NCBI GenBank assembly: GCA_030650395.1
Contig: JAUSDY010000171.1
Location: 6,554-70,553 of the forward strand
Reading direction: 5' to 3'
Source of the DNA: Acidobacteriota bacterium
GTDB taxonomy: Bacteria; Acidobacteriota; Vicinamibacteria; Vicinamibacterales; UBA2999
DNA: 64,000 nucleotides
Shown here in pieces: positions 6,501 through 48,896 of this stretch. The translations under genes and the position numbers were made by a program. Below the pieces are notes generated by a model. That model was not told the origin of the DNA, ran no database searches, and saw only the letters and a list, made by a program, of their open reading frames with translations. The stretch's first letter is position 1. Every line of letters begins with the position of its first letter.

Positions 6501-6521
6501 GTTCTGATCCTAGATCATGCG

Positions 6522-6579
6522 GGGCTTGAGGGCTCGAGGGCTTGGCGTTTTTTGCCTTTTGCCTTCTGCCTTCTGCCTT
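6522..6579. repeat. spacer built from GGGCTTGA octamers followed by a GCCTTNT heptamer array
   Basis: gggcttgagggctcgagggcttgg (6522-45), whose first 23 nt (6522-44) also occur at 38449-71. Then gcctttt gccttct gccttct gcctt (6554-78). This fills the queG-yqgE spacer. Confidence 0.85.
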
Positions 6580-27974: not shown

Positions 27975-28070
27975 GAAGGGCTTGGGGGCCTGGGGGCTCG
28001 AGGGCTTGGACGGTCAAGTCCTCAAGCCCTCAAGCCCTCAAGCCCTCTGCGGCCTCAAGCCCTCAAGCCC
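27975..28070. repeat. tandem-word composite palindrome (GGGCTTGR / CCTCAAGC octamers)
   Basis: gaagggcttgggggcctgggggctcgagggcttggac opposes gtcctcaagccctcaagccctcaagccct...cctcaagccctcaagccc. It fills the glnN-GT39 spacer up to 3 nt before ATG 28074. Confidence 0.85.
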
Positions 28071-37243: not shown

Positions 37244-38581
37244 TTAGCGCGGAAAGCGTCCGAGCGCGACGAGCAATTCCAGGCGCGCTTGCCGCACCGC
37301 ATCCTCGCCCTGCGCGACGATGGTCTCGAGATCGCGCACCGAGCGTTGCGCATCGATCACCTCGATGTTGGTCGTGGACCCGGCATCGAAGGCGATGATC
37401 GTGATCTTCAAGACTTCGTTGGCGTGCTGTGCCGCCTGCCGCGCGCGCACCAGCGCGCGCTCCTGGGCCTCGACCGCCGCGCGCGCGACGCGCACTTCCG
37501 ACCGCGCCCGGATCTGCACCTGCTCCAGTGAGAACGACGACGCCTGCAAGCTCGCCTCGCGCTGGCGCCGCACCGCGCGGCGCGAGCCGGCGTCGTAGAG
37601 CGGCTGCGACACCTGGAACGACAGGCTCCAGCTGCGCGACGGCTGAAAGAGGCCCGACGGCGCGAGCAGCTGCGGGCCGAAGGTGACGGCCGCCGCCGGC
37701 CACCAGTCTTTCGAGCTGTCGTGAACGACCCGATCGCTCGCCTCGCGTTCGGCGGTGAACAGCTGCACGTCGGTTCGACCCGGCATCCATTCAGCCTCGG
37801 CAGTTTCAACCGGCACCTCGAAGGCCGGCTCGCCATTCACATCGACCGGCGCATTCGCGGCCAGCAGAACACCGAGCGCCTCTTGCGCGCGCCTGACGTT
37901 GAGGCGAAAGATTTCGACCAGCGCTTCGTTGCTCGCGAGGATCTGCGCCGACCGCAGCTCGTTCAACCGGCTGCCGACGCCGCCTTCACGCCGCCTGGTG
38001 TTGTAGTCGAGTTGTCCGCGCGCGGTCTGGATCGCGTTCACGCTCACCTCGACCTGCCGCTTCTGCGCGATCACGGCAAGATAGGCTGACGCGGTCGCGA
38101 CCGCGATTTGGCGGCGCGTCTCTGTGGTCGACAGGCGCGCAATCTCGACCTGGTCGAGCGCCTGCGCGCGTGCGGCCCACTGTGCGGCCGCGAGGATGGG
38201 CGCGGTGGCCGAGAGTCCGAACAGGGTCTGGTTCTGCGGCTGCACCGTTTCGCCGCCGAACGAGCGGCCGCTGTCGAGCGTGGTGTTGGTGATGTTGGCG
38301 CCGAGGCGCGGCATCACCGCCGCGCGGACCTGCTGCAGGATGGCTTCGGAGCGCAGGATGTTGGTCGAGGCAATCGCGATCGTCGGGTTCTTCTCCAACG
38401 CGCGCGCGATGGCCTCGTCGAACGTCACGGTTTCCACGGGTACCCCGAGGGCTTGAGGGCTCGAGGGCTTGAGCCTGCCCTGAGCGAAGGTGACTCCGCT
38501 TGCGGAGTCGGCTGAGTCGAAGGGGGCTTGAGAGCCCTGCGCCAACGCAGGCGTGGCGAACGACACCGCCAGCAACAACAT
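37244..38581 (-). CDS. alternative model: separately initiated TolC/OprM-like outer-membrane efflux protein
   Basis: In-frame ATG 38581 (GTG 38584) opens MLLLAVSFATPALAQG..., followed by two OMF repeat halves. This model is nested in the long ORF. Confidence 0.4.
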   Translation of the reverse strand: MLLLAVSFATPALAQGSQAPFDSADSASGVTFAQGRLKPSSPQALGVPVETVTFDEAIARALEKNPTIAIASTNILRSEAILQQVRAAVMPRLGANITNTTLDSGRSFGGETVQPQNQTLFGLSATAPILAAAQWAARAQALDQVEIARLSTTETRRQIAVATASAYLAVIAQKRQVEVSVNAIQTARGQLDYNTRRREGGVGSRLNELRSAQILASNEALVEIFRLNVRRAQEALGVLLAANAPVDVNGEPAFEVPVETAEAEWMPGRTDVQLFTAEREASDRVVHDSSKDWWPAAAVTFGPQLLAPSGLFQPSRSWSLSFQVSQPLYDAGSRRAVRRQREASLQASSFSLEQVQIRARSEVRVARAAVEAQERALVRARQAAQHANEVLKITIIAFDAGSTTNIEVIDAQRSVRDLETIVAQGEDAVRQARLELLVALGRFPR

Positions 38582-41500
38582 CACGGCACCAGCTGCCGCC
38601 GGTGCAGGCGAACCTGACGAACCCGAACGCCGTCCGCGTCCTGGCGCGATCGATCGAATCACGACGTAGAGCACCGGGATGAAGACGATCGACAGGAATG
38701 TCGAGGCCAACATGCCGCCGGCCACCGCGGTGCCGACCGAGTTGCGCGCCGCCGCGCCCGCACCGGTCGCCAGCGCCAGCGGTAGCACGCCGAGGACGAA
38801 GGCCAGCGACGTCATCAGGATCGGCCGCAACCGAATCCGCGCCGACTCGATCGCGGCGTCGACGATCGACAGCCCGCGCCCGCGCAGCTGCTCGGCAAAC
38901 TCGACGATCAGGATCGAGTTCTTCGCCGCCAGCCCGACGAGCAGCACCAGGCCGACCTGGCAGAACACGTCGTTGTTGAAGCCGCGCACCAGCTGCGCAG
39001 ACAGCGCCCCAAATACCGCCAGCGGCACGCCGAGCAGGATGATCAGCGGCAGGACGAACGACTCGTATTGCGCCGACAGCACCAGGTAGACGAGCAGCAG
39101 GCTCAGGCCGAAAATCAACCCGGCCTGGCCGCCGGCCCGGCGCTCCTCAAGCGATTGCCCGGCCCACGCGAAGTCAAACCCCGGCGGCAGATTCGCGCGC
39201 GCCAGGTCCTCCATCGCCTGCAGCGTCTGTCCCGAGCTCTGGCCGGGAGGCGGGTTGCCCGAGATCTCCGCCGACCGGAACAAATTGAAGTGGCTGATCA
39301 CCTGCGGCGCGGTCGTCTCGCGCAGGCGGACGACGCTGTCGAGCGGGATCATGTCGCCGCTCGACGCCCGCGCATACAGCTGCTTCAGGTCGGTCGGGCT
39401 GGCCCGGAACCGTTGATCCGCCTGCACGTAGACGCGGTAGGCGCGGTTGTTGAAATCGAAGTCGTTCACGTACTGCGAGCCCAGGAACACTTGCAGCGCA
39501 TCGGTCACCTCGCGCAGCGGCAGGCCCAGGCTGCGCGCCTTGTCGCGATCGATGTCCACGATCAATTGCGGATCGTCGGCACGGAAGCTGCTGAAGGCGC
39601 CCTGGACTTTTCCACTCTGATTGGCCGCCCCCATCAAGCCGAAGGTGGCGCCCGCCAGCGTGTTGATGTCGTTGGAGCCGGTTTGATCCAGCACTTCGAA
39701 CTGGAAGCCACCGAAGGCACCCACCCCCTGGATCGACGGCGGCGGGAACGCGACCACGATGGCGCCGGGAATCATGAAGAGCGGACCGCTCAAGCGCTGC
39801 AGGACCGCCGACAGCGATTGATCTGCATTGGGCCGCTCGGCATAGTCCTTCAGCCGGACGAAGATCATGCCGTTGTTCGGCGCCGCGCCGGAAAAGCTGA
39901 AGCCCATCACGGAAAACGCCGCGGCCACGTCCTTGTCGGCGTAGAGGATCTGCTCGGCCTTCTTGGCAATCTCCGTGGAGTATTCGAGCGACGCCCCGGC
40001 GGGCGCCTGCACGATCGCCATGAAAAACCCTTCGTCTTCCTGCGGCACGAACGACGAGGGCACCATCTGGAACACCGTCCACGTCGCCCACAGCCCGCCG
40101 GCAAACAGCAGCAGCATCGCGTATCGCAGCCGCAACGCCCCGCGCACGAGGCGGACGTAGCCGTTGGTCCCGGCATCGACGACGCGATTGAATCCGGTGA
40201 AGAAGCGGCCGTGCGTGTGCGACTCCTTGTCGAGCAGCAGCGCCGCCAGCGCGGGCGTCAGCGTCACGGCGTTGAACACCGACAACACCACCGAAAACGC
40301 GATGGTCAGCGAGAACTGCTGATACAAGCGCCCGGTCACGCCGGGGAAGAACGCCACGGGCACGAACACCGCCACCAGCACGATGCCAATCACGACCACC
40401 GCGCCAAACACTTCGCGCATCGCGTCAACAGCGGCCTGCCGCGCCGACTTGTGAAACTCGCGCATGTGCCGCTCGATGTTCTCGATCACCACAATCGCAT
40501 CGTCGACCACGATGCCGGTGGCCAGCACGATGCCGAACAGCGTCAGCGTGTTGATCGAGAAGTCGAACAGCTTGATGAAGGCGAACGTCCCGATCAGTGA
40601 CACCGGGATCGTGATGGCCGGAATGATCGTGCTCCGCCAGTTCTGCAGGAACAGGAACATCACCAGGATCACAAGGCCGATCGCTTCCGCGAGCGTCCAC
40701 AGCACTTCGACGATCGATTCGCGCACGACGACGACGTTGTCGAAGGCGACCTGCCACTCGAGGCCCGGCGGGAAGCTCAGCTTGAGCCGATCCATCTCGG
40801 CGACCACGCCTCTGAACACTTCGATCGCATTGGCCGAGGGCAGCAGCGAAATGCCGATGCCCTGGGCTTCGAGGCCGAGGAACCGCAGGTTGGACGAATA
40901 GGTTTCGGCGCCGAGCTCGACACGGCCGACGTTTTTCACGCGCACCAGCGCGCCGTCCTTGCCGGCCTTGACGACGACGTCCTCGAACTCGGGCGCCTCG
41001 GACAGACGGCCCATGGCGCGCACGCTGATGGTGTATTGCTGACCGACAGTAGCCGGCGCATCACCCAGCGCGCCCGCGGCCACCTGCACGTTCTGTTCGC
41101 GCAGCGCGCCCAGCACATCGGCCGCCGTGATGTTGTGGCCCGCCAGCTTCGACGGATCGAGCCAGAGCCGCATCGCGAACTTGCGCTCGCCGAACACGAT
41201 CACGTCGCCGACGCCGGGGACACGCTTGATCGCGTCGCGGATGTACAAGTCGATGTAGTTGCTGATGAACAGGCTCGAATAGCGGTTGTCCTTCGAAAAG
41301 AACCCGAGCCCGCCGATGAAGCCGCTAGCGACCTTGACGACCGAAATGCCGTTCTGGCGCACCTCCGCCGGCATGCGGCCGAGCGCCTGGTTGACGCGGT
41401 TCTGCACGTCGACGGCCGCGAGATCCTGATCGCGATCGACGTCGAACGTGACGGTGATCGTCGCAAAGCCGCTGTTGGTGCTGGACGAGGTCATGTAGCT

Positions 41501-41728
41501 CATGCCCTCGACGCCGTTGATGGCCTGCTCGAGCGGGGTGGTCACCGCGCTCTCGACGGCTTGCGCGTTGGCACCGGTATAGAACGCGGACACCGTGACC
41601 GCCGGCGGCGCCAGGTCCGGATAGCGGGCAATCGGCAGCGTCGGAATCGACACCGCGCCGGCGAGGATGATCAGCAGCGAGCAGACCGTTGAGAGGACGG
41701 GCCTGCGAATGAACACGTCGGCCATCAT
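37244..41728 (-). CDS. RND (AcrB/MexB-type) efflux permease continuing without a stop codon into a TolC/OprM-like outer-membrane factor (single 1494-codon ORF)
   Basis: The first ~1048 codons are typical HAE1 RND (MMADVFIRRPVLS...). Then come a G/S/P/A linker, a signal-like segment VMLLLAVSFATPALA-QG and ~430 codons of OMF repeats. No in-frame stop separates them. Confidence 0.8.
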   Translation of the reverse strand: MMADVFIRRPVLSTVCSLLIILAGAVSIPTLPIARYPDLAPPAVTVSAFYTGANAQAVESAVTTPLEQAINGVEGMSYMTSSSTNSGFATITVTFDVDRDQDLAAVDVQNRVNQALGRMPAEVRQNGISVVKVASGFIGGLGFFSKDNRYSSLFISNYIDLYIRDAIKRVPGVGDVIVFGERKFAMRLWLDPSKLAGHNITAADVLGALREQNVQVAAGALGDAPATVGQQYTISVRAMGRLSEAPEFEDVVVKAGKDGALVRVKNVGRVELGAETYSSNLRFLGLEAQGIGISLLPSANAIEVFRGVVAEMDRLKLSFPPGLEWQVAFDNVVVVRESIVEVLWTLAEAIGLVILVMFLFLQNWRSTIIPAITIPVSLIGTFAFIKLFDFSINTLTLFGIVLATGIVVDDAIVVIENIERHMREFHKSARQAAVDAMREVFGAVVVIGIVLVAVFVPVAFFPGVTGRLYQQFSLTIAFSVVLSVFNAVTLTPALAALLLDKESHTHGRFFTGFNRVVDAGTNGYVRLVRGALRLRYAMLLLFAGGLWATWTVFQMVPSSFVPQEDEGFFMAIVQAPAGASLEYSTEIAKKAEQILYADKDVAAAFSVMGFSFSGAAPNNGMIFVRLKDYAERPNADQSLSAVLQRLSGPLFMIPGAIVVAFPPPSIQGVGAFGGFQFEVLDQTGSNDINTLAGATFGLMGAANQSGKVQGAFSSFRADDPQLIVDIDRDKARSLGLPLREVTDALQVFLGSQYVNDFDFNNRAYRVYVQADQRFRASPTDLKQLYARASSGDMIPLDSVVRLRETTAPQVISHFNLFRSAEISGNPPPGQSSGQTLQAMEDLARANLPPGFDFAWAGQSLEERRAGGQAGLIFGLSLLLVYLVLSAQYESFVLPLIILLGVPLAVFGALSAQLVRGFNNDVFCQVGLVLLVGLAAKNSILIVEFAEQLRGRGLSIVDAAIESARIRLRPILMTSLAFVLGVLPLALATGAGAAARNSVGTAVAGGMLASTFLSIVFIPVLYVVIRSIAPGRGRRSGSSGSPAPAAAGAVMLLLAVSFATPALAQGSQAPFDSADSASGVTFAQGRLKPSSPQALGVPVETVTFDEAIARALEKNPTIAIASTNILRSEAILQQVRAAVMPRLGANITNTTLDSGRSFGGETVQPQNQTLFGLSATAPILAAAQWAARAQALDQVEIARLSTTETRRQIAVATASAYLAVIAQKRQVEVSVNAIQTARGQLDYNTRRREGGVGSRLNELRSAQILASNEALVEIFRLNVRRAQEALGVLLAANAPVDVNGEPAFEVPVETAEAEWMPGRTDVQLFTAEREASDRVVHDSSKDWWPAAAVTFGPQLLAPSGLFQPSRSWSLSFQVSQPLYDAGSRRAVRRQREASLQASSFSLEQVQIRARSEVRVARAAVEAQERALVRARQAAQHANEVLKITIIAFDAGSTTNIEVIDAQRSVRDLETIVAQGEDAVRQARLELLVALGRFPR
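38445..38537. repeat. compound element (GGGCTTGA words + flank-conserved/variable-stem unit) inside the OMF coding region
   Basis: gagggcttgagggctcgagggcttgag + ccctgagcgaagg-t-gactccg-cttg-cggagtc-ggct-gagtcgaaggg + ggcttgagagccc. Translated as SQAPFDSADSASGVTFAQGRLKPSSPQALG. Confidence 0.85.
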
Positions 41729-41731
41729 AAT

Positions 41732-41794
41732 TAGGTGCCTCGGGTGCCTAGGGTGCCTAAGGTGCCTAGGGTGCTTTGGGTGCCTGAGGTGCGG
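41732..41794. repeat. tandem 9-mer array (NNGGTGCCT x7) spanning the MFP stop and the MFP-RND spacer
   Basis: taggtgcct cgggtgcct agggtgcct aaggtgcct agggtgctt tgggtgcct gaggtgcgg. On the minus strand it encodes the MFP tail PQAPKAP, then TAG-containing repeats. Confidence 0.9.
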
Positions 41795-42914
41795 CGCCGG
41801 CAGGCGCCGGCATCACGGGCGCGCCGTCGCGAATTTTTTGCAGCCCCGACACGATCAGCTGCTCGCCGGCCACGAGGCCCTTGCGCACGACGTAGTCGTT
41901 GCCGACGATCTCACCGAGGTCGACCGGCTTCTGCTTGGCGACCATGCCCTGACCGTCCTTCTCCGCCACGAACGCGAAGTACTGGGCGTTGATGCGAAGC
42001 ACCGCGGTGACGGGCACGGTGAGGCCGGGCGCATCCGACCACACCACGCGCGCGCGCACGAACTGATCGGCGCGGAACTGGCCGCGGCCTTCGACGAGCG
42101 GCGCTTTCGCGAGCACGGTCTGCGTTTCATCCACGTTGGGCGAGATGAACGAGATCTGGTTGGTGGCGATCACTTGCCCGCGATCGTCCATGAGCCGGAC
42201 CGGCAGGCCGACCCTGAGCCCGGGCGCCTGCTGCACGGGCACGTTGATGTAGAGCTCGAGCACGTCGTTCTCGTCGACGGTGGTGAGCACGGTGCTCTTG
42301 GTGACGCGGTCGCCGACCACCACCTGGATGTCGCCGACCACCCCCGGGCTTGGCGCGGTGACGCGGTAATAGGCCAGCATGCTGCGCTGCTGCTTGATCT
42401 GATCGTCGAGCGCCTTCAATTGCGCTTCGGTGGTGCGAACCGAGGTTTCGTATTGCTCGACCTCGCGCTGGCTGACGGCGCCGGCCTCGTGCAGGGTCTT
42501 GTTGCGTTGCACCTGTTGCCGCGCGAATTCGAGCTCGGCTTCGCGCATCGGGCGCATCGATTGCAGCGACGCGAGGGCGGATTGTTCGGGCGCCGAGTCG
42601 ATCTCGAACAGCACGGCGCCTTGGGAGACACGCTCACCCGATCGCACCGCGATGCGGGTGAGGTGTCCTTCGGCCTGCGGTTGGATCGTTGTCGATCGCC
42701 GAGATTTGAGCGAGGCGACGAACTCGCTCGTTTGTTCCACCGGCTTATTAGCCAGCGTGATCAGTTCCACCGGCATCGGCGGCATACCGCCACCGGGCGG
42801 GACCGCCGGCTGTCCGCCTTCCGGCGCGCCACCGCATGCGACTATGGACGAACATAAAGCGAATGCGACGGCCGCGCGTCGGAGGTCAGGAGCGGTATGT
42901 AGGTGGAAAGTCAT
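41766..42914 (-). CDS. efflux RND periplasmic adaptor (membrane fusion protein) lipoprotein
   Basis: Lipobox SSIVACGG with HlyD/MFP barrel-sandwich and hairpin regions. Immediately upstream of the RND gene. Confidence 0.9.
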   Translation of the reverse strand: MTFHLHTAPDLRRAAVAFALCSSIVACGGAPEGGQPAVPPGGGMPPMPVELITLANKPVEQTSEFVASLKSRRSTTIQPQAEGHLTRIAVRSGERVSQGAVLFEIDSAPEQSALASLQSMRPMREAELEFARQQVQRNKTLHEAGAVSQREVEQYETSVRTTEAQLKALDDQIKQQRSMLAYYRVTAPSPGVVGDIQVVVGDRVTKSTVLTTVDENDVLELYINVPVQQAPGLRVGLPVRLMDDRGQVIATNQISFISPNVDETQTVLAKAPLVEGRGQFRADQFVRARVVWSDAPGLTVPVTAVLRINAQYFAFVAEKDGQGMVAKQKPVDLGEIVGNDYVVRKGLVAGEQLIVSGLQKIRDGAPVMPAPAGAAPQAPKAP

Positions 42915-48815: not shown

Positions 48816-48896
48816 GGACTTGAGGGCTTGAGGACTTGAAGGGCTTGAGGACTTGAAGGCGACCAAGCCCCCAAGCCCTTAAGCCCCCAAGCCCTG
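48816..48896. repeat. tandem-word composite palindrome (GGRCTTGA / CCAAGCCC words)
   Basis: ggacttgagggcttgaggacttgaagggcttgaggacttgaaggc opposes gaccaagcccccaagcccttaagcccccaagccc. It lies between the dnaK stop and the rpoZ-like start. Confidence 0.85.

Follow-up and report, generated by a model that had tools for sequence, protein, structure and literature searches.

The 64,000-nucleotide stretch analysed here (the window; contig JAUSDY010000171.1 of the Acidobacteriota assembly GCA_030650395.1, from a soil bacterium of the Vicinamibacterales) carries a gene in which two components of a tripartite efflux pump, a resistance-nodulation-division (RND) permease of the inner membrane and an outer-membrane factor (OMF), are encoded as one chain. 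The fused open reading frame occupies positions 37244-41728 of the minus strand and consists of 1494 codons plus the stop; translation of the window shows no internal stop codon. Both domains are complete according to Pfam, and the description of the locus as one uninterrupted frame of 1494 codons in the initial annotation was borne out. The fusion is almost certainly real and conserved. At the junction the chain holds a segment that resembles a signal peptide, and we consider it likely from its sequence that signal peptidase I processes the fused chain as a precursor, at the bond between A1063 and Q1064. Most likely an ordinary pump of three parts results; no paper we found describes this way of making one.

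The RND permease part comprises residues 1-1026 (38651-41728, minus strand) and ends ...FIPVLYVVIRS. The Pfam model ACR_tran matches residues 2-1025 over model positions 1-1021 of 1021, with 1138 bits. The curated models for HAE1-type permeases (AcrB/MexB) are also matched over the full length of this part: NCBIfam RND_permease_1 (NF000282) with 1267 bits against a cut-off of 1250, and TIGR00915 with 1249 bits against a cut-off of 940. The translation contains the proton-relay motifs VVDDAIVV, GLAAKNSIL and RIRLRPILMTS. Judged by the position of these motifs, the proton-relay residues (AcrB D407, D408, K940 and R971, in transmembrane helices TM4, TM10 and TM11) appear to be in place. The permease had at first been taken to extend to about residue 1048; homology to RND proteins ends at S1026 (38651), and residue 1048 is instead the end of the linker that follows.

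The C-terminal 395 residues (1100-1494; 37247-38431, minus strand) have a complete OMF fold of the TolC/OprM type. Pfam OEP matches in two stretches from residue 1103 onwards (123.5 bits, cut-off 22), and a phmmer alignment pairs this part with OprM residues 50-423. An AlphaFold2 model of the OMF part contains four long strands and long helices, with a predicted local distance difference test score (pLDDT) of mostly 84-96. The first 40 Foldseek matches of this model are all OMFs, with a probability of 1.00; only the ranking and the probability were used as evidence for the OMF assignment, the TM-scores being set aside. Unlike OprM, which is a lipoprotein, the OMF encoded here ends its signal with PALA/Q (the slash marks the predicted cut) and has no Cys after it. 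It falls outside the NodT/OprM lipoprotein subfamily also by score, as TIGR01845 gives 76.8 bits against a cut-off of 210.

Between the two domains the chain reads ...FIPVLYVVIRS-IAPGRGRRSGSSGSPAPAAAGA-VMLLLAVSFATPALA-QGSQAPF..., and translation confirmed the junction as originally written down. The 22 residues IAPGRGRRSGSSGSPAPAAAGA (1027-1048; 38585-38650, minus strand) form a putative cytoplasmic linker of basic, Gly/Ser/Pro/Ala composition, the basic start of which would be the n-region of the internal signal. The 15 residues VMLLLAVSFATPALA (1049-1063; 38540-38584, minus strand) correspond to the h-region and c-region of this signal, as indicated by a conserved motif, by homology and by a modelled helix of 13 residues. 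The predicted signal peptidase I site lies between A1063 (38542-38540) and Q1064 (38539-38537), and thus within 38537-38542 of the minus strand; it was assigned from the conservation of the motif and from the signals of split and stand-alone OMFs. The site is followed by a putative periplasmic linker of 36 residues (1064-1099; 38432-38539, minus strand), which may be a flexible N-terminal extension of the mature channel. Both linkers are modelled with a pLDDT below 50, and the length of the second ranges from 7 to 45 residues among homologs.

Fused proteins of this kind form more than 100 clusters of 1465-1508 aa, each with both Pfam domains and with 54-82% identity over the junction (query residues 960-1260), far more than chance would produce. 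Their sources are named Vicinamibacterales or Acidobacteria. In whole genomes of the same genus the frames of the orthologs run without interruption for 1484-1533 aa. The loci of relatives had been proposed as the place to look for a stop codon between the two parts, and in this comparison every intact ortholog within the genus is fused, and most other Vicinamibacterales have split genes.

The segment at the junction has the features of a Sec signal, i.e. a basic n-region (PGRGRR...), an h-region (VMLLLAVSFA) and a c-region (TPALA/Q). It is located at residues 1049-1063 of 1494, after 12 transmembrane helices, and its position is therefore not the N-terminal one. Though not a canonical N-terminal signal peptide, the internal segment thus appears able to work like one. 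By our own statistics over 120 homologs, position -4 relative to the site is Pro in 105, position -3 is Ala in 100, position -1 is Ala in 112 and position +1 is Gln in 108. On both sides of the motif the sequence is hypervariable: VIR and the site are 35-76 residues apart, and a further 7-45 residues precede the OMF fold. Counted together with the c-region, the hydrophobic stretch of the homologs has a median length of 18 residues. In the model the h-region is a helix of 13 residues between disordered stretches (pLDDT below 50), a length that would fit a signal peptide better than a membrane anchor. The roughly eight stand-alone OMFs of the same genome have N-terminal signals of the same style that end AxA/Q, for example MKTLTSTTLAIALLAAGTTVAA/QQ.

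The origin of the fusion was traced in 151 genomes of the order Vicinamibacterales, 71 of which hold an orthologous OMF. Sixty of these 71 OMF loci were fetched and, together with loci fetched earlier, about 75 were classified as fused or split. The commonest state among them is two genes, one for the RND permease and one for the OMF. In the split loci (L013, L014, L015, L016, L022 and many of L037-L092) the RND frame ends with ...GGAHA or ...SHE before its stop, and the ATG of the OMF, in another frame, overlaps this stop by 4-8 nt. Those split loci that were read as DNA have GGAGG, which encodes the Gly-Gly of the tail, at the position expected for the ribosome-binding site of the OMF. Coding sequence and a translational coupling signal are superimposed at the RND tail of these relatives. 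The split OMFs themselves begin with Met followed by Arg or Lys, then a hydrophobic stretch and then AxA/Q; the internal hydrophobic segment of the fused chain is therefore the ancestral signal peptide of the OMF.

Fused forms were found in the genera g1 and g22, which form one clade (support 99), in g24, in g78 from another family and in g43 from a third family. A maximum-likelihood tree of 69 loci calls for at least four changes between the fused and the split state, at least three of which are forced by well-supported branches. The junctions also vary by lineage: linkers are long in g1 but only about nine residues in g24, and g78 keeps the ancestral Met.

Further fused proteins, of 1473-1541 aa and 28-34% identity, were found in a HMMER scan of 1.84 billion representatives. 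These distant fusions come from Bryobacteraceae, Muribaculaceae, Kiritimatiellota bacterium B12222 (WFB35000.1) and Sphingobacterium sp. SYP-B4668 (WP_270090608.1). In nine of ten that were read, a short basic stretch and a hydrophobic run are followed by an internal lipobox (L-x-G-C; for example LSGC, LTGC or LGSC). Lipoproteins are matured by Lgt, LspA and Lnt, and the lipobox is cut directly before the Cys. The internal lipobox implies that the distant fusions would be cleaved internally by signal peptidase II, directly before the Cys, and lipidated by this established pathway. The distant fused proteins with such a lipoprotein signal include P0130, P0132, P0143, P0151, P0156, P0183, P0192, P0205 and P0165. 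The public names found for full-length distant members are those of RND permease subunits, to which IMG adds NodT OMF.

Several observations weigh against the interpretation of the gene as a conserved fusion whose product is cleaved. The Foldseek TM-scores of the OMF model are low (0.3-0.39); we attribute this to having modelled a single subunit of what is an obligate trimer. All close relatives are uncultured metagenome-assembled genomes (MAGs). An in-frame GTG-ATG pair (GTG 38584 and ATG 38581, codons 1049 and 1050) lies precisely where the h-region begins, and initiation at the GTG of V1023 would yield a signal that includes a basic n-region. In addition, the real translation starts of this genome also have weak Shine-Dalgarno matches.

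The start codons at the junction raise the possibility that the functional OMF is initiated internally, at GTG 38584 or ATG 38581 as put forward in the initial annotation, or at the GTG of V1023, and that the fusion is a by-product. The translational coupling of the ancestral split genes would agree with this. We nevertheless regard internal initiation as improbable. Neither the Val nor the Met of codons 1049 and 1050 is conserved in homologs, and no conserved start or Shine-Dalgarno match was found in the orthologs; four of them (L002, L004, L005 and L012) have no in-frame start before the h-region, or only poorly placed ones. The Shine-Dalgarno matches of the orthologs are weak, with -5 to +1 kcal/mol compared with -9.5 to -13.8 kcal/mol in three of five split relatives, an argument that is only supportive since the real starts of the genome pair weakly too. 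A product starting at M1050 would have no n-region. The absence of a stop codon weighs more, as each ribosome that completes the RND part must go on to translate the OMF. The conserved AxA site would be needed either way.

Still less credible is an uncleaved fusion, in which the hydrophobic segment serves as a 13th transmembrane helix, the OMF remains covalently bound to the RND subunit and one chain spans both membranes. The linker of 36 residues after the site could, when fully extended, reach about 120 Å. However, the modelled h-region helix and the median hydrophobic stretch are short for a stable transmembrane helix, and an anchor has no need of the conserved Pro at -4 or of AxA/Q. Solved structures of TolC and OprM place the N-terminal end of the fold in the equatorial domain, a long way from the inner membrane. 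In 21 of the 120 homologs the OMF fold follows the site with eight intervening residues or fewer (minimum 7). Because such linkers cannot bridge the gap, an uncleaved tether is geometrically impossible in these 21 homologs. Fused relatives with an internal lipobox must likewise be cut. Of the initial suggestion of a genuine fusion, with the hydrophobic stretch as either an extra membrane helix or an internal signal, the part that the evidence supports is the signal cut by signal peptidase, in line with the conserved AxA/Q, the homology to split orthologs and the short hydrophobic region; the extra helix is not supported.

That the fusion is an assembly or sequencing error, or a recent pseudogene formed by loss of a stop, is barely conceivable: the window does come from an assembly of 180 contigs, and a shift to frame +1 behind VIRS would lead to a TGA that overlaps ATG 38581, but more than 100 independent assemblies contain the fusion, with 54-82% identity and obvious constraint on both domains, the fused clade covers two genera, and neither the hypervariable linkers nor the inserted repeats have disrupted the frame. 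The lost stop that had been considered at the outset is thus not an artefact; it holds only for the evolution of the gene, in the course of which an ancestral stop disappeared.

Some candidates at this point were examined and rejected. A hidden frameshift that would lead from VIRS through frame +1 to the TGA over ATG 38581 was dropped, since more than 100 homologs keep the fused frame. G166 at first looked like a split ortholog from the same genus, but a contig end cuts the gene. In G010 (L017, G010:C6) and G003 (L018, G003:C22) the RND part, too, falls into several frames, and they were not accepted as splits. The G010 contig bears the MFD isolate prefix, and since we take MFD MAGs to be long-read assemblies, assembly indels are a likelier cause than real splits; the breaks in both genomes are likely indel errors or pseudogenes. 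G113, in which the frames differ and the N-terminus of the OMF match is degenerate, was scored as split or uncertain.

In our reading, the stop of the RND gene was lost at a junction where it overlapped the start of the OMF gene, and the OMF retained its own Sec signal peptide, which thereby became internal. The HAE1-type permease and its cognate OMF are now translated as one precursor of 1494 residues, with the adaptor gene separate upstream. For the cleavage of this precursor we propose the following mechanism. After insertion of TM12 the C-terminus would be cytoplasmic, and the basic tail (PGRGRR) would remain inside. Segment 1049-1063 would then enter SecYEG in an N-in/C-out orientation, and the OMF part of 430 residues would be threaded to the periplasm. 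Signal peptidase I would cut after PALA (A1063/Q1064), freeing a normal soluble OMF precursor that could proceed to the outer membrane and leaving the RND subunit with a C-terminal extension of about 37 residues. The outcome would be an ordinary tripartite pump with a fixed 1:1 ratio of RND to OMF and no separate translation start for the OMF. In this scheme the topology of the chain, its cleavage and any advantage under selection are inferred, whereas the sequences show that the fusion exists, that it is conserved and recurrent, and that the features of the signal peptide are conserved.

A 1:1 stoichiometry through fusion, as initially proposed, is plausible. A more far-reaching possibility, which we put forward only tentatively and hold to be rather unlikely as a whole, is that the fusion is a selected device for biogenesis and not a near-neutral, reversible loss of a stop. 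The pump would then carry the OMF as its C-terminal part, the only form in which these lineages could make it. The translocon that already handles the RND part would export the OMF during translation, and signal peptidase would release it beside its parent subunit, so that the pump and a dedicated exit duct would be produced 1:1 and nucleated in cis. The signal that is cut off would remain on the RND subunit as a 13th membrane segment. Such a device would have evolved repeatedly, with at least three to four state changes in Vicinamibacterales and, in addition, fused forms in several phyla that use either signal peptidase I or lipoprotein signals.

Directly after the putative cleavage site lies a repeat of 93 nt (38445-38537, no strand assigned), which had been noticed before and proved to be a dispersed palindromic element of the genome. 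It is in frame and stop-free, encodes SQAPFDSADSASGVTFAQGRLKPSSPQALG and adds about 31 residues without counterpart in close orthologs. The element has 52 matches in the genome of the window, including near-full copies of 93-99% identity on at least eight other contigs. Its core is a hairpin, GACTCCGC-TT-GCGGAGTC, within a palindrome of about 55 nt, and is flanked by tandem words of 8 nt, (GAGGGCTT)n; the word array alone has about 99 copies. The fold has an energy of -46 kcal/mol, and the copies align in both orientations. Dispersed copies and hairpin symmetry place the element with REP/RPE-like repeats. As in the Rickettsia palindromic elements (RPE) and REP-type repeats, a dispersed palindrome sits in frame in a tolerant part of a protein; it differs from them in belonging to another sequence family and in combining a hairpin core with tandem words of 8 nt. 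Further occurrences in the window are located at 6521-6544, 27985-28046 and 48872-48895. The peptide SQAPFDSADSASGVTFAQGRLKPSSPQALG can be read at other copies too, because the element is palindromic.

Repeats also occur in the cytoplasmic linker of orthologs, where a REP-like hairpin, GGGTCTTTAGACCC, is read in frame as RRGGSLDPP (L003, L006 and L009; P0025, P0074 and P0076). In L009 the RRGGSLDPP hairpin is present three times, in addition to a threefold GVPQSRARLD after the signal. The 14-mer GGGTCTTTAGACCC has 31 copies in the genome of the window. From the in-frame repeats in both linkers it follows that both tolerate insertions; only insertions that preserve the frame were seen.

The gene upstream of the fused gene, at a distance of 37 nt, encodes an adaptor of the membrane fusion protein (MFP) type (382 aa; 41766-42914, minus strand). 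It matches Pfam HlyD_D23/HlyD_3, and its score of 213 bits against NCBIfam TIGR01730 RND_mfp (cut-off 94.9) identifies it as an RND adaptor. Elsewhere in the genome there are about eight further OMF genes, which stand alone and have ordinary N-terminal signal peptides (C11:41435-42718, three loci on C120, and loci on C132, C137, C1 and C143); the gene described here is the sole fusion.

A second family of fused RND-OMF paralogs occurs in the same genus. Its members, L019 (G013:C68), L020 (G020:C4) and L024 (G011:C20), have about 1490-1515 aa, are 31-34% identical and have their own adaptor gene upstream. Their internal signal likewise ends in ...TTAFA/Q. This family is absent from the genome of the window.

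In its three components and in the gene order adaptor-RND-OMF the locus resembles MexAB-OprM of Pseudomonas aeruginosa and AcrAB-TolC of E. coli, and the split orthologs in sister families have exactly the canonical mfp-rnd-omf arrangement. The locus differs from this arrangement in that RND and OMF share one frame, the OMF signal is internal and the OMF has no conserved start codon of its own. The closest mechanistic precedent known to us is probably FbcH, the cytochrome b-c1 precursor of Bradyrhizobium japonicum, which is reportedly cleaved into two subunits of one complex, as said to have been demonstrated by experiment. The two arrangements agree in that a polytopic inner-membrane protein, whose C-terminus is cytoplasmic, leads in frame into the signal peptide of a partner that is exported. 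The products of FbcH stay in the inner membrane or at its periplasmic face, whereas the part released here must reach the outer membrane; furthermore, cleavage is reportedly demonstrated for FbcH and is predicted for the present chain.

A fusion of components of an RND-superfamily machine that are encoded by separate genes in some bacteria is also known from SecDF of Thermus thermophilus, a single chain according to a review (PMC8277102). The likeness lies in the components being fused in some bacteria and separate in others. Unlike the fusion described here, SecDF is one uncleaved inner-membrane protein, with no internal signal peptide and no second membrane involved. A description of a natural RND-OMF fusion was not found in our literature search, which included the accessible part of this main review of tripartite pumps (PMC8277102).

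Tripartite pumps are textbook three-gene machines that span two membranes, and the fusion shows that one chain can supply both membranes. Together with the distant lipobox forms, the fusions would provide natural internal substrates of signal peptidases I and II that follow a protein with 12 transmembrane helices. The repeated changes between the fused and the split state may be seen as an evolutionary experiment on stoichiometry and translational coupling. Since fused genes are annotated only as 'RND permease', their OMF is overlooked in censuses of resistomes and transporters, and genomes that carry them may be wrongly scored as having no OMF for that pump.

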